From Acidimicrobiia bacterium (GTDB taxonomy: Bacteria; Actinomycetota; Acidimicrobiia; Acidimicrobiales; Iamiaceae): 31,451 nucleotides of DNA. Below the pieces are notes generated by a model that was given only the letters and a program-made list of their open reading frames with translations, had not been told where the DNA came from and ran no database searches. Both the position numbers and the translations under genes were made by a program. Shown one piece after another: positions 5,304 through 18,082 of the stretch. Each line of letters begins with the position of its first letter. The stretch's first letter is position 1. The DNA is taken from NCBI GenBank assembly GCA_019247975.1, contig JAFBAD010000050.1, forward strand, positions 1 to 31,451. The letters run 5' to 3'.

Positions 5304-6290
5304 TCACCGGATGGACAGCCGGCTGCTGATGGCGCGGGCCACCAGGGTCAGGACCAGCACGATGACGATGAGCGTGAGCGCGGCGCCCCACGCGAGCCGC
5401 AGGGCGGTCGGCCCGGTGAGCGCGGCCTGGTTGTAGATGAACTGCGAGAGCGAGACGTTCCCGCCGTGGAAGCGCCAGTTGTAGTTGTACGCCGCGCCGA
5501 TGGTGAAGAGGACCGGTGCGGTCTCGCCGGCGGCGCGGGCGACGGCGAGCATCGAGCCGCTGGTGATGCCGGGCAGCGCCGCCGGCAGCACGACCTTGGT
5601 CGTTGTCCGCCACGTGCGCACGCCGAGCGCGGCGCTCGCCTCACGGAGGTGATCCGGCACGAGCCGCAGCATCTCCTCGCTCGACCGCACGACGATCGGC
5701 AGCATCAGGCACCCGAGCGCGAGCGACGCCGCGAACGCGGACTTGCCGTCGACGCCGTAGTGCACCACCCACACCGAGTAGATGAACACGCCCATCACGA
5801 CCGAGGGCACGCCCGTCATCACGTCGGTCATGAAGCGGATGAAGGAGGCGAGCCGCTTCTTGCGGCCGTACTCGTGGAGGTAGACCGCGCCGAGGATGCC
5901 CAGCGGGATGGCGAGCACGGCCGCGCCGAGCGTCGTGAGCAGGGTGCCGACGATCGCCGGGCCGATGCCCAGCTGGGTCGACGAGGTCTGCTGCGTGGTG
6001 GTCGGGGTGCCGCCGTACTTGGCCAGGACGTCGTTGGTGAGGTCGGCGGAGCCGGTGTCGGGCGGGATCTCGTTGGTGAAGAAGTCCTTCGTCACCACCT
6101 TCATGCCCTGCTGGGTCACGTTCACGAGCACGAAGCCCAGGGGGATGACGGCGACGAGGAACGCGCCGATCATCGCGATCGTCGCGAGCTTGTTGCGGAC
6201 CCGCCGGCGCATCGTGACCGTCGTGACCCGCACGTCCGACGACGGGTGGAGCGCGACGTCCGCGTCCTCACGGAGGTCGATCGTGGTCAT
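5304..6290 (-). CDS. pstA: Phosphate ABC transporter permease PstA (copy 1)
   Basis: [38 protein letters not shown]-type motif ([10 protein letters not shown]). ATG at 6290 overlaps the pstC stop. Confidence 0.93.
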
Positions 6291-7304: not shown

Positions 7305-8399
7305 CTAGCTGCTGATCTGATCGAGCTGGTCGACCGCCTTCTGGGCGAGATCGGTCGGCAGCTTGGCGTAGAGGACCGACTCCGCAGCGCCCTGACCCGT
7401 CGTGAGGACGTACTTCAGGTAGTCCTTGAGCAGGTCGGCCTTCGCCGCGCTCGACTGCGTCTTCAGCACGAGGACGTAGGTCGGCGAGGTGATGGGGTAG
7501 GCGGCGTCGCCGTCGGCGTTGATCGGGTCGAACGTGAGGTCGTCGTTGACCGTGGCGTTCTCGGCCGCGGCTGCGGAGCCGGCCGGGGTTGGCTTCACGA
7601 ACTTGCCGGCCTTGTTCTTGATGGCCGCCACGTCGAGGCCCGCCTTGGCCGCGTCACCGAGGTCCACGTAGCCGACGGCGCCGTCGGTGCCCTGGATGGC
7701 GGTGGCGACACCCGAGTTCTTCTCGGCGCCCTGCGTCGAGCTGTCCCAGTTCACGGTCTCACCCGAGCCGAGCGTCCACGCGTCGGGAGCGGCGGCGGTG
7801 AGGTACTTGGTGAAGTTGCTCGTGGTGCCCGAGCCGTCCGAGCGGTGGACCACCGTGATCTTCGTCGACGGCAGGTTCGCGTCCGGGTTGTCCGCCTTGA
7901 TGGCGTCGTCGTCCCAGGTCTTGATGTCCGTGCTGAAGATCTTCGCCACGGTGTCCGGGCTCAGGTTGAGCTCCTTGACCCCGGAGAGGTTGAACGAGAT
8001 CGTGATCGGTGCGGTCACGAGCGGGAAGTAGAGGACGTCGTCCTTCTTCTTGGCCAGGTCCTCGTCGTCCTTGACCGGCGAGTCGCTGCCGGCGAAGTCG
8101 AGCGTGCCGTCCGACAGGCCCTGCTTGCCGTCCGACGAACCGGACTTCTGGTACACGACGTTCCCGTCAGGGTTGACCTTCTTGTAGTCGGCGATCATCC
8201 GCTGCTGGAAGCCGTCCTGGAAGGACGAGCCGCCACCGGTGACGCTGCCCTTGACGCTGCTGGAGCCGCCGGTGCCACCGGCGCCGGTCGTGGTGGTCTT
8301 GTCGCTGTCCTTGTTGTTGTCGTCGCCGCAGGCCGAGGCCAGCAGCGTGGCGACGGCGAGGATGGCGAGCACCCAGGTCCAGCGGCGCTTCGTGTGCAT
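7305..8399 (-). CDS. pstS: Phosphate-binding lipoprotein PstS (canonical copy)
   Basis: Lipobox LASAC; GGGSSF, SGSSDG, DFAGSD, RSDGSGTT and AYPIT motifs; AAGGAGG RBS upstream of ATG 8399. Confidence 0.93.
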   Translation of the reverse strand: MHTKRRWTWVLAILAVATLLASACGDDNNKDSDKTTTTGAGGTGGSSSVKGSVTGGGSSFQDGFQQRMIADYKKVNPDGNVVYQKSGSSDGKQGLSDGTLDFAGSDSPVKDDEDLAKKKDDVLYFPLVTAPITISFNLSGVKELNLSPDTVAKIFSTDIKTWDDDAIKADNPDANLPSTKITVVHRSDGSGTTSNFTKYLTAAAPDAWTLGSGETVNWDSSTQGAEKNSGVATAIQGTDGAVGYVDLGDAAKAGLDVAAIKNKAGKFVKPTPAGSAAAAENATVNDDLTFDPINADGDAAYPITSPTYVLVLKTQSSAAKADLLKDYLKYVLTTGQGAAESVLYAKLPTDLAQKAVDQLDQISS

Positions 8400-8481
8400 C
8401 AAGGGTTGCCCTCCTTGGGCGGGGTGTGGGGGTCCGCCCACGCGGGCGGATGTGATGCCATCGCGGACGGTACGGAGGACG

Positions 8482-8679: not shown

Positions 8680-9435
8680 ATGACGCTGACGACCAGGACC
8701 GCGGCGCGCGTGTCGCTGGTGGGCGCGATCGCGTTCGTGGGCTGCACGATCGCGGGCATCGTCGCCTACCCCGGCGGCACCCGGGACGACCTCGGGACCC
8801 ACCACTACCTCTTCTTCAAGAACTTCCTGAGCGACCTCGGCGGCACCTACACCGCATCGGGCCTGGCGAACGGGACGGCCCGCCGCTTCTTCATCGCGGC
8901 GATGATCGCGGTGGCGGTCGCGCTGGTCACCCTCGGGTTCGCGGCGCGTGCGTGGGCCCGCGGCCGGATCCGGTGGCTCGCCTGGTTCCCGCTCCTGGTC
9001 GCGGCCCTCAGCGGAGCTGCGTTCATCCGCGCCGGCACGATCCCCTGGAACGTCGACTACTACCGGCACATCGACTGGGTGCAGGCGGCGTTCGTCCTGC
9101 TCGGGGTGCTCGTCTTCTCGATCACCGTGCTGCAGCTGGTCGGCCGTGCCCCGGTCCGCTGGATCGCCGCGAACGCGGTGTTCCTCCTCGCGCTCGGCGC
9201 CTACGTTGTCTACGACCAGAAGGGGCCGAGCATCTTCACACCCGACGGCGTCCGGGCTCAGGCGACCGCGCAGAAGATCATCGTCCTCCTGGCCATCGCC
9301 GACCTCGTTGCGCAGGCCTGGGCGCTCGGCCGGCCACGCCGGGACCCTCAGTCGGACCGCCGCCGGCGCAGCGCTGCGCTCATCGCCGGAGGACCGAACA
9401 CGACGGCCAGCAGCAGCACGATGACCCCCACGTAG
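8680..9435 (+). CDS. Multi-pass membrane protein, DUF998-like
   Basis: About six hydrophobic segments and a YPGG...NFLSDLG motif. The 3' end overlaps the convergent pstS2 3' end by 88 bp. Confidence 0.6.
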   Translation: MTLTTRTAARVSLVGAIAFVGCTIAGIVAYPGGTRDDLGTHHYLFFKNFLSDLGGTYTASGLANGTARRFFIAAMIAVAVALVTLGFAARAWARGRIRWLAWFPLLVAALSGAAFIRAGTIPWNVDYYRHIDWVQAAFVLLGVLVFSITVLQLVGRAPVRWIAANAVFLLALGAYVVYDQKGPSIFTPDGVRAQATAQKIIVLLAIADLVAQAWALGRPRRDPQSDRRRRSAALIAGGPNTTASSSTMTPT

Positions 9436-10877
9436 ATCCCGGTCGGCACCTGGTCGTCGCCCGGGGCGACGCTGGCCGGTCCCACCGAGGCGACGTTCTG
9501 CTGGTTCAGCTCCTGCTGCGAACCGCCGGTGCCGGCAGCATCCGAGGACCCCTGGTCGGTCGGGCCGGTGCCGTTGTCGCTCGACGCCAGCGTCGTGGTG
9601 GTCGTGTCCCCGCCGCCGATCCGTCCGCCCTGGTTGGCGCTCGGCGGCTTGTAGCCCGGCGCGGTGTCGGCCGCCGGCGGAGGCGCCTTGTCCTTGTTGA
9701 ACGCTCCGGTGATCGTCGGGTTCGCGCACGAGTTGATCGGTGGCGGCTTCGGTGCCCCGGGGATCTGGCTCTCCGCGTCGAACCCGTACTGCACGAGGTT
9801 CTTCGGCAGCGGCGAGTAGCCGAGCTGCTCCGCCTTCTGCTGCCCGGTGCAGAGGAAGTAGAGGATGAACTTGCCGAGCACGTCGCCCTTGGCCTTGGTG
9901 AAGATGCCGGCTTCCGACGTCGGCACGATCATGTAGCTGTAGCTCGACACCGGATAGGTCCGGGGGTCGGGGTTCGTGTACACGCCGTCGAGCACCTGGG
10001 TGCGGTCCGACTTGATCTGCGCACGGGCCAGCGCGATGGCGACGTTGAGCGCGGTCGGCTGCGTGAAGTAGCCGGCCTGGTTCTGCACCGACGCCACCGG
10101 GAAGCCGCGCTGCTTGGCGTAGCCGTACTCGACGTAGGTGATGGCGCCGTCGTTGTACGGCGCGGCGACGGCGCTGGCGACACCGTCGGAGCCCGACTGC
10201 GCCTGGCTGCCCGGGAAGATCGGGTACAGCGACGTCGGGAGGCACGGGCTGAGGCCCATCTTCTTGTAGAAGGCGCAGTAGAGCGACGAGTAGCGCTTCG
10301 ACATGTAGAGGCTGAACTGCGCGGACGTGCCCGAGCCGTCGGAGCGCACGATCGGCTTGATCGTCTTGCTCGGGAAGGTCCGGCCGTTGTTGTCCTTGGT
10401 GATCGCCGGGTCGTTCCAGTTGGTGATGACGCCGGTGAAGATCTTGGTGACCGTCTCGCCGGAGAGCCGGAGGTCGGTCACCCGCTTGCCACCGACCTCG
10501 AGGTGGTACATGAACGAGGTGCCGCCCGCGACGATCGGCATGTACGCGTACGGCCGGGCCTTCGCCCGCTGGATCTCGTCGTAGAGGATGTTGCCGTCGC
10601 GGTCGCGCAGCTCCGGCTGGAACGGGATCTCGGACACGGCGAAGTCCGACTGGTTCTCGATGTAGAACTTCCGGCCGTTCGACGAGCCGTTCGGCGTGAA
10701 GTTGATGGAGAGGCCCTGGCGGGCGACATCGGTGGCCCACTGGGTCACCGCGATGGCGCTCCAGGTGGACCCGGACCCGTTGACCTGCGCGGCCGCGCCG
10801 GCCGGTCCGCCCGGCACGACGACCGCGCACACGGCGAACAGCGCGGCAAGGACCGCGAACAGCTTCCCTCGGAGCAT
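9348..10877 (-). CDS. pstS: PstS paralog 2: non-lipoprotein, with long low-complexity linker and C-terminal TM anchor
   Basis: Signal peptide without a lipobox; GSGSTW, NGSSNG, DFAVSE, RSDGSGTS, YPVSSYSY and GYSPLP; P/T/G/S linker followed by IYVGVIVLLLAVVFGPPAMSAALRRRRSD. Confidence 0.88.
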   Translation of the reverse strand: MLRGKLFAVLAALFAVCAVVVPGGPAGAAAQVNGSGSTWSAIAVTQWATDVARQGLSINFTPNGSSNGRKFYIENQSDFAVSEIPFQPELRDRDGNILYDEIQRAKARPYAYMPIVAGGTSFMYHLEVGGKRVTDLRLSGETVTKIFTGVITNWNDPAITKDNNGRTFPSKTIKPIVRSDGSGTSAQFSLYMSKRYSSLYCAFYKKMGLSPCLPTSLYPIFPGSQAQSGSDGVASAVAAPYNDGAITYVEYGYAKQRGFPVASVQNQAGYFTQPTALNVAIALARAQIKSDRTQVLDGVYTNPDPRTYPVSSYSYMIVPTSEAGIFTKAKGDVLGKFILYFLCTGQQKAEQLGYSPLPKNLVQYGFDAESQIPGAPKPPPINSCANPTITGAFNKDKAPPPAADTAPGYKPPSANQGGRIGGGDTTTTTLASSDNGTGPTDQGSSDAAGTGGSQQELNQQNVASVGPASVAPGDDQVPTGIYVGVIVLLLAVVFGPPAMSAALRRRRSD

Positions 10878-10890
10878 CGGTGACCTCTCT

Positions 10891-11706
10891 TCAGCCGAAG
10901 CGGCCCTGCACGTAGTCGAGCGTGCGGGGATCGGATGGGGTGGAGAACATCGCCTCGGTCGGCCCGGCCTCGACGATGCGTCCGGGCTCGTTCTCGGCGG
11001 CGAGGAAGAACGCGCAGTGGTGGGACACCCGCTGCGCCTGCTGCATGTTGTGGGTGACGATCACGATCGTCACCTCGTCGGAGATCTCGGCGATCGTCTC
11101 CTCGATGCGTCGCGTCGACGTGGGGTCGAGCGCGGAGCAGGGTTCGTCCATGAGCAGCACGCGCGGTTGCACCGCGAGCGCGCGTGCGATGCACAGCCGC
11201 TGCTGCTGGCCGCCCGACAGGGCGCCGCCCGCCTCGTCGAGGCGGTTGGCCACCTCCCGCCACAGTCCGGCCCGCTGCAGGCAGGACTCGACGATCTCGT
11301 CCGCCTTGTCGCCCCGGCGGACCTTGAGGCCGCAGAGCTTGAGGCCAGCGAGGACGTTGTCGGCGATGCTCATCGCCGGGAACGGGTTCGGCTTCTGGAA
11401 CACCATCCCGATCTGGCGGCGGGTCTCCGTCGACGTGCGCTTGCCGCGGTAGATGTCCTCGCCGTCGAGCTCGATCGATCCGGCGAGCGACGAACCGGGC
11501 ACGAGCTCGTGCATGCGGTTCAGGATGCGGAGGAACGTGGACTTGCCGCACCCGGACGGACCGATGAGCGCGGTCACGTCGCGGGAGCGGATGTCGATCG
11601 ACACCCGCTCGAGCACCTTGTGCGAACCGAACCACGCACTCACGTCGCGCGCCGCCATCGAAGCGGGAGTGCGGGTGAGGTCGACGAGGGTCTCTACGGC
11701 GGTCAC
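10891..11706 (-). CDS. pstB: Phosphate ABC transporter ATPase PstB (copy 2)
   Basis: [39 protein letters not shown] and YVQGRFG. GTG at 11706 has a GGAGGAGG RBS and overlaps the pstA2 stop. Confidence 0.93.
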
Positions 11707-12803
11707 GCGAACCTCCTCCGGGCGAGCCGGCGGGCGACGACGAACAGGACGAGCACGAGCAGGAGCAGCACGAGTGCGCCGGTCCACGCACGGGTGACCG
11801 ACGAGTCCGACGACGACCGGATCTGGTTGTAGACGAACACCGGCAGGGCCTCCTGCGGGCCCTTGAACGGGTTCCAGTTCATGTCGCTGTTGGTGCCGCT
11901 GGTCAGCAGCAGCGGTGCGGTCTCGCCCACCGCCCGGGCGACACCGAGGATCACGGCGGTCACGAGTCCCGCCCGGGCCGTGGGCAGGATCACCAGGCGG
12001 GCCATGCGCCACTCGCTCCCGCCCAGCGCCAGGGATCCTTCGCGGAGGCCGCCGGGCACGAGCCGCAGCACCACCTCGGCGGTGCGGGTGACGGTCGGCA
12101 GCATGAGCACGGTCAGGGCCAGGGCGGCCGGGAAGCCGGAGAAGTGCTGGTGCAGCCCGACGATGAAGAACGCGTAGATGAAGAGGCCGGCGACGATCGA
12201 CGGCACCGCGCTCATGGCGTCGACGATCAGGCGGACCGGTCGGGCCAGCCGACCGCCGATCTCGTTGAGGAACAGCGCGCAGGCGATGCCGAGCGGCACC
12301 GACACCAGCACCGCCAACCCGACCTGCTCGATGGTGCCGACGATCGCGTGCGCGCCACCGCCGTCGGTGGCCGGGGCCAGCGGGCCGGTGGTGTGGAGCG
12401 TCTGGGTGAAGAAGTGGGGGCGGAGCGCCTCGACGCCGCGGACGGTCGTGTACCCGACGATCAGGATGAGCGCCGCGACGACGAGCACCCCCGAGCTCGT
12501 GATGACGATGGAGGCCAGCTTGTCCTTGGCCGCGATCCAGCTGTGCCGGTCGCGCAGGACCAACGCCGCGAAGCCGATGAAGAGCACGTACCAGACGACG
12601 AAGAACCCGAGCCCCCCGCTGAGCGGGGTGAGGCGCTCGTAGCCGAGCCAGGCGAGGCAGAACGCAGCCAGCGCGCTGCCGACCACCGCGAAGAGGTCGT
12701 CGGGGTCGATCCGCCTGACGCGGATGCGGTGCCGCTCGTCGGCGTCGACGGGCTCGTCGACGTCCACCGGGCTGTCGATGCCGTCGCCTTGGAGGATCGT
12801 CAT
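11703..12803 (-). CDS. pstA: Phosphate ABC transporter permease PstA (copy 2) with extra N-terminal TM helices
   Basis: [29 protein letters not shown] and [15 protein letters not shown] at 12803 overlaps the pstC2 stop (ATGA). Confidence 0.9.
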
Positions 12804-13759
12804 ATCTCGGTCGCCGCCCCGGAGCGGGACCGGCTCACGATCGTCGACGCGATGGCGTTGACGACGAGGGTCATGATGAAGAGCGCGAGGCCGGCGGCCA
12901 TGAGCGCGTGGATCTCCTTGTCGCTCGACTCGCTGAAGCGCAGCGCGATCAGGGCCGAGATGGAGTTGCCGCCCCGGTCGAGGATCTGCCACATGTGGTC
13001 GTAGATGGGCGAGATGATCAGGGTCACCGCGATCGTCTCGCCGAGGGCGCGACCGAGGCCCAGCATGGAGCCGCCGATGATCCCGCCCCGGCCGAAGGGC
13101 AGCACGACCGAGCGGATCATCCCCCAGCGGGTGCCGCCCAGCGCGAGGGCGCCTTCCTTCTCACCCGGCGGCGCCTGCGAGAACACCTCGCGGACGACGG
13201 CGGTGGTGATCGGGATGGTCATCAGCGACACGACGACCCCGGCGGTGAACGCGGTGCCGCCGAAGAGGTCGGTCGTGGTGTGGAAGATCGGGACGAACCC
13301 GAGGTGCGAGGTGAGCCACTCCGACACCGGCACCAGCCGGGGCTGGAGGAAGAAGCGGCCCCACAGGCCGTAGATCAGGCTCGGCACCGCAGCGAGCACG
13401 TCGATCGTCGAGGTGAGCACGCCGCGCACCTTGCGGGGGGCGTACTCGGTGACGAACAGGGCGGCGGCGATCGACACCGGCACCGCGATCACTAGGGCAA
13501 CCAGGGCGATCATCACCGTGCCGAGGAGGATCGAGGCGATCCCGAACCTGCCCTCGTTCGGGTTCCACTTCTGCTCGGTGAGGAAGCTGAACCCGGCCTC
13601 CTTGAGCGCGGGCAGACCCTCGCTCAGGAGGAAGAGACCGATGAGCGCCATGATCACGAGCACGGCGATGCCCGCGCTCCGCACGACGCCGCGGTAGACG
13701 CGATCCGGGCGCGACCGCTCGACGCGGTACTCGACCCGCGTCTCGTCGCGCTGAACCAC
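12800..13759 (-). CDS. pstC: Phosphate ABC transporter permease PstC (copy 2)
   Basis: [34 protein letters not shown] and [14 protein letters not shown] at 13759 follows GGAGG; ATG at 13789 is an alternative. Confidence 0.9.
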
Positions 13760-13794
13760 CCCGGCCTCCACGGAGCGCCACCCAATCATCCGTA

Positions 13795-13873: not shown

Positions 13874-15847
13874 GTGTTTCGGCGCGCCCTCGTTCTCGTG
13901 TTCGCGACGTGTGGGTGGCTGCTCGTCATTCCCGCCGCGTCGCCGCCGTCGAACGCCGCCGACGGCCGGACGCTCAGCGCGACACCTGCCGACGGGCTCG
14001 GCAACGAGGTGGTGGCCGTGTCGTGGACCGGCTTCCAACCGTCGGTCGACGGCGCCTACACAGTGACGATCATGCAGTGCAAGGGCGCGGTGCCCTCGTC
14101 GCTGGCCGACTGCTACCAGACGTTCCGGCCGCCGGCCACGAACGACGACAACGGCAGCGCGGTTCCCGACGGTGTGACCCAGGCCGACGGCACCGGCACC
14201 TCGTTCATCGAGGTGCGCCCTGCGCTGCAGCTCCCCTCGCTCGACTGCACGGCGACCAGTCCCTGCTCGCTCGTGGCGTTCGAGAACGACGGCAGCGAGT
14301 ACCCGGCGGTCGGTCTCCCGACGACCGCCGCGACCACGACGCTCCACTTCGCCCGCAGCCCGGCCGACTGCCCGCCGGTCGACACCTTCGACGTGACGAC
14401 CGCCGGTGAGGCGTCGGCCTCCCAAGCCCTCTACTCGTGGAGCGCGCAGACGTGCACCGGTGCTGACGCGCTGCACGTCGACTACACGGAGTCGAGCTCC
14501 GTCGACGGACGCGAGAACTTCCTCAACGGGCTGATCGACGTGGGCATCGCGTCCGGGCCCGCTGACGCGGCCGCGGCTGCTGCGTCGGGCCGGTCCCCCG
14601 AGTACGCCCCGATCGACCTCACCGGTGTCGTCGTCGCCTTCAACGTGTACGACGCGGTGACCGGTGAGCGCATCACCGACATGAACCTGACGCCCCGGCT
14701 CGTCGCCATCCTGATCGCCGGTGACCAGTTCGGCGGACCGGCCGAGACGCTCTTCTCCGACCCCGAGTTCCTCGCCATCAACCCGGGCCACAACTGGCCG
14801 TCGTCCACGGTGCCCCCGCTGCTCCGGGCCGAGCGCAACGACGACGCCACGCTCCTCACCCGCTGGCTGAACACCGACGGCGCGGCCCGCCAGTTCCTCG
14901 ACGGCAACGACTCGGTGGCCGAGGTCGACCCCTACTGGAAGGGCATCGACTACCCGACCGACACCTTCGAGGCCCGCGACCAGTCGACCCTCGGCAGCTA
15001 CAACCCCCGCTCAGGCACGATCACGAACGCCCGCCGGCTGTTCAACATGCAGGCGCCGGGCGACGGTCAGGTCGCGACACCGAGCTTCCAGGGCCTGCTC
15101 GGCGTGCTCGACGCGGTGACCGCCCGCAAGTTCGGCATCCCCACGGCCAAGCTGCGGCCCGCCTCGACGTCGACCTCCATGGCCACGGACACGACCGGCT
15201 TCGTCGCCGCCGACGGCATCGGCCTGACCTCGGGCCTCGCGGCGATGCAGAGCGACGACGCGACCGGCACGAAGGCGGCCGACGTGTCCGCCGCGGCTGC
15301 GTACCCGCTGACCAAGATCGACTACGCGATGGTGCCCACCACGGGCATGTCGGTCGAGAAGGCCGCGAAGATCGCGCAGTTCGTCGAGTACGCGAGCAAC
15401 CAGGGTCAGCAGCCCGACGTGCTCGCGGAGGGCTACCTGCCGCTGACGACCGACCTGCAGTCCGAGGCGGGCCAGGTGGCCGACGCGGTGAAGGCGGGCG
15501 GCAGCGACACGCCGCCTCCGCTCGGCGGTGGCGACACCCCGCCCGACACCGCCGACCCCGAGCTGCCGTTCGATCCCGGGGCGCTCGGCCCGACCGACTC
15601 GTCGGACAGCCCTTCGTTCGACGACGGTTCGACCCCGTCGGACCCGGCCACCGGCGGCTCGAGCAACCCGACCAAGACCTCGGACAAGGGCGGTAGCGGC
15701 AACGAGACCGCGGCGCCGTTGCCGATCAGCAAGTTCAAGGGTGGGGACGGCCAGGCGATCCTTCCGATCGTGCTGCTGATCGGGCTGGCAGCGCTCGTGT
15801 TCGGGCCCGGTCTGACCTGGTGGAGCGGGAGGAGGCGGCGGGTATGA
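13874..15847 (+). CDS. Exported protein: neocarzinostatin-like Ig domain + degenerate PstS-fold domain + linker + C-terminal TM anchor
   Basis: Signal peptide; TLSATPADGL..VAVSWTGF..IMQC..DC and LDC...C resemble the neocarzinostatin apoprotein fold. AYPLTKIDY and GQ..LAEGYLPL match the PstS C-lobe. Tail is AILPIVLLIGLAALVFGPGLTWWSGRRRRV. Confidence 0.75.
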   Translation: MFRRALVLVFATCGWLLVIPAASPPSNAADGRTLSATPADGLGNEVVAVSWTGFQPSVDGAYTVTIMQCKGAVPSSLADCYQTFRPPATNDDNGSAVPDGVTQADGTGTSFIEVRPALQLPSLDCTATSPCSLVAFENDGSEYPAVGLPTTAATTTLHFARSPADCPPVDTFDVTTAGEASASQALYSWSAQTCTGADALHVDYTESSSVDGRENFLNGLIDVGIASGPADAAAAAASGRSPEYAPIDLTGVVVAFNVYDAVTGERITDMNLTPRLVAILIAGDQFGGPAETLFSDPEFLAINPGHNWPSSTVPPLLRAERNDDATLLTRWLNTDGAARQFLDGNDSVAEVDPYWKGIDYPTDTFEARDQSTLGSYNPRSGTITNARRLFNMQAPGDGQVATPSFQGLLGVLDAVTARKFGIPTAKLRPASTSTSMATDTTGFVAADGIGLTSGLAAMQSDDATGTKAADVSAAAAYPLTKIDYAMVPTTGMSVEKAAKIAQFVEYASNQGQQPDVLAEGYLPLTTDLQSEAGQVADAVKAGGSDTPPPLGGGDTPPDTADPELPFDPGALGPTDSSDSPSFDDGSTPSDPATGGSSNPTKTSDKGGSGNETAAPLPISKFKGGDGQAILPIVLLIGLAALVFGPGLTWWSGRRRRV

Positions 15848-16782
15848 CCTCGATCATCGAGGACCGCGAGGACGACCTCCGACCGACCACCTCCACCCCC
15901 GAGCCCGACGCGGTCGCCACCGACGAGCCCTCCGCCGCGAGCAACGGCCCGCTCGGACCCGACGTCGTCCGCACGGTCGGGCGGGGCCTGACCGTGCTCG
16001 GCCTCCTGGTGCTCGCGTTCGTGGTGTACCTCGTCGCGATCACCCCGCTCATGCAGGGGCGTGACCAGCGCGGCCTCGATCGCCGGTTCCGCAGCTACGT
16101 CGAGACGCAGCAGACCTGGATCGGCGGCGAGATCCCCGAGGGCGAGCCGGTCGCGAAGCTGGAGATCCCGAGCATCGGCTTCCAGCAGATCGTCATCGAG
16201 GGAACCGACGGATCACAGCTCCGCAAGGGCCCGGGTCACGAGCGCACGTCCGCCCTCCCCGGGCAGGCGGGCAACGCGGTGATCGAGTGCCGCCGGGTCA
16301 CCTACGGCGCGCCCTGCCTCCACCTCGACCGGCTCGCCGAGGGCGACCTCATCGAGGCGACGACCGGACAGGCCATCACCCGCTACCTCGTGACGAAGGT
16401 GTTCGAGGTGTCCCGCAAGGGCGTGGACGTCATCGACCCGACGCGGGACAACCGGCTCACGTTGGTGACGTCCGCGCCGCTCCTGCGGGCCAGCCGCCGT
16501 CTCGTCGTCACCGCCGAGCTGCAGCGCAAGGAACCACTGCCGACCGAAGCGGCCCGACCGACCGACCTGCGCACCGACGAGCTCGGCCTGCACGGCGACC
16601 GCTCGGGCGGGTTCGGCGTGCTGCTGTGGCTCGAGGCGCTCGCGCTGGCTGCGGTCGGGGCGGTGCTCCTCCGCCGGCGCTGGTCGCGCTGGACGACCTG
16701 GTTGGTGATGGCGCCGATCATCGCCCTGCTCGTGGTGCTGGTGTTCGACAGCGTCGCCCCCGTCCTGCCCTCCACGCTCTGA
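15844..16782 (+). CDS. Class E sortase-like protein with substituted catalytic residues and extra C-terminal TM helices
   Basis: N-terminal TM, LEIPSIG..QIVIEG, LRKGPGH, LPGQAGNAVI, TYGAP..LD.L..GD and RLTLVTS. ATG at 15844 overlaps the upstream stop (ATGA). Confidence 0.85.
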   Translation: MTSIIEDREDDLRPTTSTPEPDAVATDEPSAASNGPLGPDVVRTVGRGLTVLGLLVLAFVVYLVAITPLMQGRDQRGLDRRFRSYVETQQTWIGGEIPEGEPVAKLEIPSIGFQQIVIEGTDGSQLRKGPGHERTSALPGQAGNAVIECRRVTYGAPCLHLDRLAEGDLIEATTGQAITRYLVTKVFEVSRKGVDVIDPTRDNRLTLVTSAPLLRASRRLVVTAELQRKEPLPTEAARPTDLRTDELGLHGDRSGGFGVLLWLEALALAAVGAVLLRRRWSRWTTWLVMAPIIALLVVLVFDSVAPVLPSTL

Positions 16783-16957: not shown

Positions 16958-18082
16958 TTGAGGAAATCCTTCAAGGTGCTGGGTCTGCTGATCGCCGTCA
17001 TCGCCGGCGCAGCGACCCTCACCGGGTGTCAGAGCGGGGACTCGATCAACGGACCGGGGTCGGACACGATCTTCGACGTGATGAAGGTCCTCACCCAGCA
17101 GTACAACGACAGCGGCAACACCGGTGGCGACAAGGCGTTCGTGCCCGGCAACAAGCTGACCGGTGACCAGAGCTACACCGTGTCCGGTGACAGCCACTGC
17201 GGCAAGATCACCTACAACGCGAGCAACCAGCCCCCGGACGGCTCGTCGGCGGGCATCAACGCCCTCGTCGCCGACACCGACGGCTGCGTCGACTGGGCCC
17301 GGTCGTCCCGCGGCCGGAGCTCCAGCGATCCGTCGAACCTCGAGTTCTACGCGTTCGCGAAGGATGCCGTGAGCTGGGCCCGCTTCGGCGGCTCGTGCCC
17401 CGGCGGTGACGCCGGTCCCGCAGGCTGCGGACCGACCAACCTCACCACCGCGCAGCTCAAGGGCATCTTCATCTGCGACCAGCCCGGTGGCCTGCCCAAG
17501 TTCACCAACTGGGCCCAGGTCGGCGGCGACAACGAGCCCATCACGCGGTACCTCCCGCAGATCGGCTCGGGCACGCTGTCGTTCTTCGAGACCCGCATCC
17601 TCGGGCTCGCGAGCGCCCAGCAGGGCGTCGTCGACGACACGAGCTGCGCCCACCGGCCGACGCGGGCCCAGGAGAACTCCGGCAACCTCGTCGCCGACAG
17701 CGACAAGGTCCGGACGATCCTGCCGTACTCGTTCGCGCAGATCACCTCGCAGGGCAACGGAACCGTTCCCGACATCCGCGGTGGGGCCGTGATCGGCAAC
17801 ATCAACGGCGTCGCCCCGTCGAAGACGACGGTCGGCAACAACTCGTTCCTCGGTGTCCGCTACGTCTACAACGTGGCCAAGACGACCAGCCCGTCCTACG
17901 ACCGGGTGATCAACTACATCGGCGTCGCTCCCACCTCCGATGGTGGCAACGGCTTCCTGTGCGCCAACAACGGTGACGTGCAGAGCACGATCAGCAAGTA
18001 CGGCTTCGTGCCGCTGAGCCTCGCTCCGGCCGGCCCCGGCCTGCCGAGCAGCCGCTGCCGCAAGAACCCGCCGCCGCTGTAA
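16958..18082 (+). CDS. PstS-fold substrate-binding lipoprotein, Cys-rich (paralog 3)
   Basis: Lipobox LTGC; INGPGSDT, VDWARSSR, LPQIGSGT and VRYVYNV. GGGAG RBS 7 nt before TTG. Confidence 0.78.
   Translation: MRKSFKVLGLLIAVIAGAATLTGCQSGDSINGPGSDTIFDVMKVLTQQYNDSGNTGGDKAFVPGNKLTGDQSYTVSGDSHCGKITYNASNQPPDGSSAGINALVADTDGCVDWARSSRGRSSSDPSNLEFYAFAKDAVSWARFGGSCPGGDAGPAGCGPTNLTTAQLKGIFICDQPGGLPKFTNWAQVGGDNEPITRYLPQIGSGTLSFFETRILGLASAQQGVVDDTSCAHRPTRAQENSGNLVADSDKVRTILPYSFAQITSQGNGTVPDIRGGAVIGNINGVAPSKTTVGNNSFLGVRYVYNVAKTTSPSYDRVINYIGVAPTSDGGNGFLCANNGDVQSTISKYGFVPLSLAPAGPGLPSSRCRKNPPPL

Follow-up and report, generated by a model that had tools for sequence, protein, structure and literature searches.

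Why do two proteins encoded in one phosphate-transport locus end in the same four residues, with the same spacing to the same run of arginines? The question is raised by a stretch of 31,451 nucleotides from an Acidimicrobiia bacterium of the family Iamiaceae (GCA_019247975.1, contig JAFBAD010000050.1, positions 1–31,451, forward strand), hereafter the window, in which PstS2, a binding protein of the PstS type, and a PstS-like product of 657 amino acids (aa) both terminate in a hydrophobic helix followed by VFGP-x7-RRRR. A sequence-only reading of the window had taken this ending, found beside a gene of sortase fold, for a possible novel sorting signal shared by two otherwise divergent proteins. 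The tail match is real and non-random. The profiles and homologs examined here do not bear out the proposed common sorting signal in the form given; judged from the sequences and their neighborhoods, both tails are more probably type I membrane anchors that stay uncleaved at the C-terminus, perhaps serving as docking helices within the membrane, and they belong to an accessory Pst module that is apparently undescribed.

The endings themselves are readily confirmed by translation. PstS2 (9348–10877, minus strand) consists of a signal peptide, a binding-protein domain (PF12849, E 5e-38, 131.8 bits; TIGR00975, 184.8 bits, below the curated cutoff of 205 bits), about 100 aa of low-complexity stalk and, at the C-terminus, a transmembrane (TM) anchor, and has no lipobox; its tail module (residues 472–508; 9354–9464, minus strand), which the tail hidden Markov model (HMM) matches over 9357–9464 with 61.8 bits, ends in VVFGP-PAMSAAL-RRRR-SD, with VFGP at 9390–9401. 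The 657-aa protein (13874–15847, plus strand) is composed of a signal peptide, an extra N-terminal domain, a degenerate PstS-like binding domain (PF12849, 22.5 bits, below the curated cutoff of 27 bits; TIGR00975, a partial match of 54.6 bits, E 9e-15), a stalk and a C-terminal TM anchor, and its tail module (residues 619–657; 15728–15844, plus strand) ends in LVFGP-GLTWWSG-RRRR-V, with VFGP at 15797–15808 and RRRR at 15830–15841. The stalks of the two proteins measure about 90–100 residues. Motif and spacing are thus identical, as had been claimed, and when all six frames of the assembly (3.2 Mb, 390 contigs, 67% complete) are searched for C-terminal FGP, 4–10 residues and RRR, these two proteins are the only matches; both are of PstS type, and their genes lie about 4.4 kb apart in one module. 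A looser count gives 14 charge-free hydrophobic segments genome-wide that run straight into at least three basic residues, three of which have [G/A/P]-P at positions −10 to −5: PstS2, the 657-aa protein and one unrelated multi-pass protein (contig C176, a 346-aa stop-to-stop frame), which ends in LLGAP-x6-RRR. Because of the protein on C176, an ending of small residue, proline, six residues and arginines is not exclusive to PstS-type anchors, and the pattern is uncommon, yet not unique, in this genome.

The sequence-only reading had also supposed that the rest of the two proteins has little in common, which does not hold. PstS2 and the 657-aa protein align collinearly by BLASTP over binding domain, stalk and tail (residues 173–656 of the 657-aa protein against 31–507 of PstS2, 21% identity, E 5e-10), and they are best described as distant paralogs with the same architecture. 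Owing to this collinear paralogy, the tail is most simply regarded as inherited. Recent gene conversion between the tail-coding regions is not indicated, since an alignment of the two DNA regions gives no excess identity, and the codons of the two RRRR runs differ.

Conservation of the tails was followed in each family separately. Among the 120 PstS2 homologs listed, 111 carry the tail without gaps, at 50–76% overall identity, and the profile built from them begins at an outer boundary of D-P-[VL]-P, continues with Y (95 of 111) and a hydrophobic helix of about 17 residues, and then has V-F (F in 100), a G or A, and two prolines (the second in 104). Six mostly apolar residues then lead to R-[RK]-R, with R or K at position +8 in 99 sequences, which gives the compact consensus Y...F-[GA]-P-P-x6-R-[RK]-R. 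The family of the 657-aa protein (88 homologs listed; counts in alignment A2 over 34 or 41 sequences) has its own version: F-x-G-[GS] precedes the helix, whose outer boundary is marked by an L-P that never varies (P13), and small residues G..A..A follow along the helix, then an invariant G (G26) with P after it (P27 in 30 of 41), 4–7 residues, RR and often a longer cytoplasmic extension. Phenylalanine precedes GP in just 2 of 34 of these sequences. The protein of the window belongs to a GPGL[TS] subgroup, in which the residue before GP is F, L, L or V, and more distant members have YP, VPP, AP or CP, or lack the proline. Identity to the tail of the window protein is 38–40% without gaps, against 17–31%, with gaps, in the stalk.

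Both tails are consequently conserved among orthologs, each in the version of its family, and VFGP-x7-RRRR as such is not. Because F-GP is rare in the 657-aa family and the two family tails are distinct, the identical VFGP and spacing in this genome are a coincidence atop a shared design of helix, small residue plus proline, six or seven residues and an arginine cluster. Within the genome itself, four PstS-type anchors have a proline 6–8 residues before the arginine cluster, whereas a 657-aa paralog on contig C133 has it directly before the arginine run. A proline of this kind is absent from the anchors of the genome's LPKTG (C29), LANTG (C306) and C179 proteins.

The two tails cannot be read as a single portable signal: the HMMs built from the tails and their homologs find neither each other's family nor foreign cargo. 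Aligned by hhalign, the PstS2 and 657-aa tail profiles fall in register at the proline with a probability of just 59%. In its own genome the PstS2-tail HMM finds PstS2 and a paralog on contig C21 alone, and neither the 657-aa tail nor that of the C133 paralog; its weak matches elsewhere (G052, G045, G046 and G009, E 7e-4 to 1e-2; G432, 7e-5) were rejected as unrelated hydrophobic segments or as lacking a PstS context. A search of 1.84 billion representative proteins with the 657-aa tail profile (E up to 0.001) gave 18 proteins, of which the nine that were read are members or fragments of the 657-aa family and three more are homologs already listed; no PstS2 and no unrelated cargo with this tail occurs among the identified matches. 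Each tail thus belongs to a single protein family and is present once or twice in a genome, whereas the usual sorting signals are found on many unrelated proteins per genome.

Nor was an established signal found in the tails. The absence of a canonical LPxTG or LAxTG, remarked on earlier for the two proteins, extends to their families, as L[PA]xTG does not occur in the last 70 aa of either window protein, of 120 PstS2 homologs or of 61 homologs of the 657-aa protein. The VPTG of PstS2 was considered as a degenerate LPXTG and rejected, for the family consensus at this place is [VL]-P-x-[G/L]-[ILV]-Y, without threonine and with G in 31 of 111. Against the NCBIfam models, with E values up to 10 admitted, neither tail matched a curated sorting domain, and the only result was a MYXO-CTERM trace of 7.3 bits (curated cutoff 15.85 bits). 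Exosortase (PF09721) has no match in the 67%-complete assembly, rhombosortase not having been searched for, and no processing gene of exosortase, archaeosortase or rhombosortase type stands in the module loci looked at.

The sortase-fold gene directly follows the 657-aa gene (15844–16782, plus strand; PF04203, E 5e-23), and its product carries the sortase fold between one N-terminal and two C-terminal TM helices and ends in LPSTL. It scores below every curated sortase-class cutoff, including that of the class E model (94 bits against 160 bits), and alignment to solved class E sortases places R (ECRR) at the catalytic His position of the GHR motif and S (TLVTS) at the Cys position of TLxTC; its paralog on C133 has GRR and TLVTS. 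Among the best 120 database homologs, the cysteine is absent in about 85 (65 Ser, 18 Ala, 4 Thr, 1 Met), Arg replaces His in most of these, and genuine Cys/His enzymes appear only lower in the list. Alanine at the nucleophile position argues against a serine-based mechanism. On these residues the protein and its clade are predicted to be catalytically dead, and the term pseudo-sortase is used here accordingly. Dead and live homologs alike have two extra C-terminal TM helices and a short end with an LLP motif, LLP[SA]TL in the dead members and LLP[AS]N plus one residue in their live Cys/His relatives; this LPXT-like peptide, at a predicted extracellular C-terminus, might occupy the protein's own groove. 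The stop codon of the 657-aa gene overlaps the pseudo-sortase ATG (ATGA, 15842–15847), and the recurrence of such overlaps of 1–4 nt in loci L025–L027 suggests translational coupling of the two genes.

A sortase with catalytic residues was likewise not found in the 67%-complete assembly, in which both sortase-domain genes lack Cys and His and score below the class E cutoff. The same genome encodes canonical LPKTG (C29:2497–6258, plus strand) and LANTG (C306:17392–18228, plus strand) proteins, and its housekeeping sortase presumably lies in the unassembled part.

The module to which the tails belong consists of pstC, a pstA with two extra TM helices, pstB, the tailed pstS2, the gene for a 657-like degenerate PstS, and the three-TM pseudo-sortase gene. 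In the window the order is pstC2-pstA2-pstB2-pstS2, with pstS2 last: pstC2 (12800–13789, minus strand), a permease gene divergent from the 657-aa gene, was defined from its open reading frame (ORF) translation and start candidates and is syntenic in all loci; pstA2 (11703–12803, minus strand) encodes a permease of which residues 93–363 align by BLASTP with residues 32–324 of PstA1; and pstB2 (10891–11706, minus strand; ORF translation) encodes the ATPase, with orthologs of 69–79% identity in all syntenic loci. At its N-terminus, PstA2 is longer than PstA1 of the same window (5307–6290) by about 60 residues, in which two TM helices are predicted, and module PstA proteins are 376–407 aa long against 295 aa for the canonical copy in L024. 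Downstream of the pseudo-sortase gene lies a gene for a PstS-like lipoprotein (16958–18082, plus strand; PF12849, E 5e-8; lipobox LTGC), orthologs of which follow the sortase homolog in G010, G071, L024 and G201; several versions of the module have this gene, and others lack it.

Fourteen loci with a tailed PstS2 were examined, and wherever the contig reaches far enough, each of them also has a 657-like gene, a sortase homolog or both. A search through 66 further genomes of the family and 60 of the order gave strong tail matches in three (G071, G089 and G010), which are also the only three with 657-aa homologs; in each case the two lie on one contig, about 5 kb apart. A phylum-wide sample of 400 genomes adds G201, a complete genome of the same class. 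The gene maps place pstC, pstA, pstB and the tailed pstS2 on one side and, divergently, the 657-like gene, the pseudo-sortase gene and often the lipoprotein gene on the other, and four metagenome contigs, picked solely for carrying a tailed PstS2, have this same layout. Outside the class, the module is found in Nocardioides soli, an Actinomycetota metagenome-assembled genome, Peterkaempfera sp. and Embleya sp. AB8 (a related-locus search with PstS2 among genome contigs gave three loci that were used as out-of-class examples); in these genomes the pst operon itself contains, before pstB, the gene of the tailed PstS together with the sortase homolog and in some cases the 657-like gene, the PstS tails read LLPG-x6-RRRR, AVPP-x6-RRRRR, AIPP-x7-RNRR or VFGAP, and the sortase homologs have neither Cys nor His. 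The homolog of the G201 module also lacks Cys. A second copy in the genome of the window is split over C133:1–3951, with a 657-aa paralog (tail VVGG...SPRRRRR), a pseudo-sortase paralog and pstC, and C21:11519–14164, with pstB and a PstS2 paralog (tail IFLPP-x7-RRR). Every strong PstS2-type tail that was found lies in this one module, and the linkage is strict; the suggestion that the tails co-occur with this sortase subfamily is hence strongly supported by the 14 loci, the subfamily itself being devoid of catalytic residues.

Taken together, these data favor the membrane-anchor account in the following form. Both proteins would be exported through their N-terminal signal peptides, and the long disordered stalk would keep the binding domain away from the membrane, which the helix of about 17 residues would span. 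Basic residues flanking membrane helices tend to remain in the cytoplasm (the positive-inside rule); from this rule and the signal peptides, a type I anchor is predicted, with the small-Pro motif and the arginine cluster at the cytoplasmic face. This agrees with the earlier placement of the conserved element at the inner end of the TM helix, and it puts the motif beyond reach of an extracellular sortase fold. The likeness to the tripartite layout of sortase substrates is accordingly partial: helix and basic tail are present, and the layout as a whole corresponds to a type I membrane anchor. The small residue with its proline (G-P-P or G-P) would break or kink the helix, the six or seven further apolar residues would lie at the inner interface, and the arginine cluster would fix the topology. 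This architecture was probably kept by descent from a tailed PstS ancestor, after which each family fixed its own version.

Hydrophobic anchoring alone would not require the near-invariant Y, F and PP of PstS2, nor the LP and small-residue face of the 657-aa family, which argues for packing of the helices against partners in the module, and small-xxx-small motifs are well known from helix packing. The tail helices probably pack in this way, and their near-invariant residues would be kept through contact with other membrane helices of the module, so that the binding proteins would be tethered beside their permease. The pseudo-sortase and the PstA extension are the candidate partners, the former because of its three TM helices, the coupling of its gene to the 657-like gene and the pairing of the two outside pst loci, the latter because of its two extra helices. 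A complex prediction for the pseudo-sortase (A3) with residues 586–657 of the 657-aa protein scored 0.04 against a mark of 0.32, which gives no verdict and says nothing for or against binding.

Several observations weigh against this account. The spacing from proline to arginine drifts over 0–8 residues in the 657-aa family and the proline is lost in G071 and L025, so that its position is weak as a sign of a precise docking site; the protein on C176 indicates that the design may be generic; membrane retention and helix–helix contact are both read from sequence, which is also compatible with cleavage by an unlinked protease; and ZnuF of Corynebacterium diphtheriae, whose tail has no sortase motif, can still end up bound to the wall (PMC12445094).

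The first two of these points would be accommodated if the tails were generic stop-transfer anchors, in which proline and arginines reflect constraints of insertion and topology plus shared ancestry, without any specific membrane partner. The paralogy of the two proteins and the low hhalign probability are in keeping with this explanation as well. Plain anchors usually conserve hydrophobicity alone, however, whereas Y, F and PP stand at fixed, gap-free positions in 111 PstS2 sequences of 50–76% identity, with modified forms in other orders, and the 657-aa tails keep an invariant LP, an invariant G and a small-residue face; a purely generic anchor is therefore considered unlikely. A true new sorting signal is quite improbable. 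On that explanation the pseudo-sortase would be a recognition subunit for another enzyme, or an intramembrane protease would require the helix-breaking proline, and the binding domain would be released or moved to the wall. The tripartite layout, the strict linkage to a sortase-fold protein, the conserved [LV]-P at the outer helix boundary of both families and the wall association of C. diphtheriae ZnuF without a sortase motif or any known sortase (PMC12445094) all speak for it. So do the helix-destabilizing residues, which are typical of intramembrane protease substrates. Against it stand sortase homologs without Cys or His, 18 of them with alanine at the Cys position, a comparison of the module loci in which no conserved protease gene was found, the lack of an exosortase match in the 67%-complete assembly, the restriction of each tail to one family at one or two copies per genome, and the position of the most conserved motif on the predicted cytoplasmic side. 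As for a match devoid of biological meaning, the variable V and F before GP in the 657-aa family (2 of 34 with F) and the differing RRRR codons, without similarity at the DNA level, are what chance would produce; that the only two such endings of the assembly belong to PstS-type proteins of one module, encoded about 4.4 kb from each other, is not, and family conservation of the proline and arginine cluster together with the paralogy largely rules it out, which makes it extremely improbable.

Comparison with known systems leads in the same direction. With the sortase cell-wall sorting signal (LPXTG or LAXTG) the tails have in common the signal peptide, the stalk, the C-terminal helix, the arginine-rich tail and an adjacent sortase-fold gene; unlike it, they lack an LPXTG-like pentapeptide in 181 homologs, are linked to a sortase homolog without Cys and His, have their conserved motif at the inner rather than the outer end of the helix, and belong to one protein family each. 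The layout therefore mimics the sortase signal but fails both defining tests, motif and enzyme. Portable CTERM domains (PEP-CTERM, GlyGly-CTERM, PGF-CTERM, MYXO-CTERM) also combine a short motif, a TM helix and a basic cluster at the C-terminus; these domains occur on many unrelated cargo proteins per genome, with the motif at the outer boundary and a dedicated processing enzyme. The tails differ from them in having no model match, no exosortase found in the 67%-complete assembly and one cargo family per tail.

Closer parallels are found among actinobacterial binding proteins. ZnuE and ZnuF and the HtaA-type heme proteins (Hta) of C. diphtheriae have a TM segment and a charged tail without a sortase motif, and ZnuF is associated with the wall by a route that is not known (PMC12445094). 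Like the tailed PstS proteins, they are secreted binding proteins from loci of ATP-binding cassette (ABC) importers, with a C-terminal TM helix, a positive tail and no sortase signal; they differ in folds and ligands, and neither a pseudo-sortase partner nor a Pro-kink motif is reported for them. The tails of the window thus appear to fit the architectural class of C-terminally TM-anchored ABC-importer binding proteins rather than a homologous family. Lipoprotein PstS, such as the PstS encoded at 7305–8441 of the same window, shares the binding-protein fold and the transporter type and is anchored by an N-terminal lipid on Cys, in contrast to PstS2, which has no lipobox and is attached by a C-terminal helix through its stalk of about 100 aa. 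A precedent for contact through membrane helices is the SafA–SrtA interaction documented in Actinobacteria (PMC9282373), in which a sortase-family protein engages a single-pass partner, with short conserved proline-containing motifs at the helix ends; SafA, unlike the tails here, is a protein of 52 aa, has the opposite topology and shields a catalytic sortase from signal peptidase. A link of the tails to the FPW and PGP motifs of SafA was rejected, the topology being opposite and homology absent. On the whole, the tails represent a variant of a known C-terminal TM anchor on transporter binding proteins, within a module for which, as for tailed PstS proteins in general, no description was found in the literature (subscription journals not covered). 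A literature search for pseudo-sortases, Cys-less sortase-like proteins or sortase together with pstS, under the same coverage, found nothing relevant.

In monoderm bacteria, binding proteins of ABC importers are thought to be tethered by an N-terminal lipid, and for the present PstS lineage the predicted tether is instead a conserved C-terminal helix with a proline kink, joined to a long stalk. It is conceivable, and somewhat unlikely, that the dead sortase homolog serves as a non-enzymatic membrane receptor or scaffold. Its three TM helices, and perhaps the groove for the substrate as well, would then bind the Pro-kinked anchors and outer [LV]-P motifs of both the tailed PstS2 and the 657-like PstS, so that a phosphate-capture complex on stalks, reaching through the wall, would form on a dedicated PstCAB. 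The tails would thereby act as a code that the pseudo-sortase recognizes, and an enzyme–substrate pair would have turned into a stable complex. The module, which may also explain phosphate capture across a thick wall under starvation, offers a tractable case for what a pseudo-sortase does and is present in Acidimicrobiia and in the culturable Nocardioides, Peterkaempfera and Embleya. Annotators should avoid labelling such tails as sortase substrates or the genes beside them as class D or class E sortases.

Related arrangements occur beyond the module. In five loci (L031–L035, from G082, G074, G085, G106 and G111), a pseudo-sortase of another subclade (GSR and TLVTS, ending in LLP[SA]TF) comes after a distant binding-protein-like protein with the anchor AGP-VLQ, and the neighbors are sulfotransferase-like rather than pst genes; the pair of binding protein and pseudo-sortase thus exists as an independent cassette outside pst loci. 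Four further loci (L037, L040, L042 and L043, from G103, G109, G084 and G102) encode a Cys-less subclade with GRRSGWGGP and TLVTSAS that ends in LLPAW plus one residue, and the upstream partner has R-L-P-G-P-L-G just before its TM helix, which may be a different partner motif, and ends in GGRRR. The genome of the window also encodes a third kind of PstS-like protein (C114:17671–19308, minus strand, corresponding to L059:8672–10309; PF12849, E 6e-26), with a Gly-rich stalk and an anchor ending in LP-x6-RRRR, from a gene that adjoins neither pst nor sortase genes. Lastly, a 251-aa multi-TM ORF of the window (8680–9435, plus strand; GC content at third codon positions 0.92) that matches no Pfam family runs toward pstS2 and shares the last 88 nt of that gene; if this ORF is real, the DNA that encodes the PstS2 tail is read on both strands, and the end of the ORF is an antisense translation of the tail.

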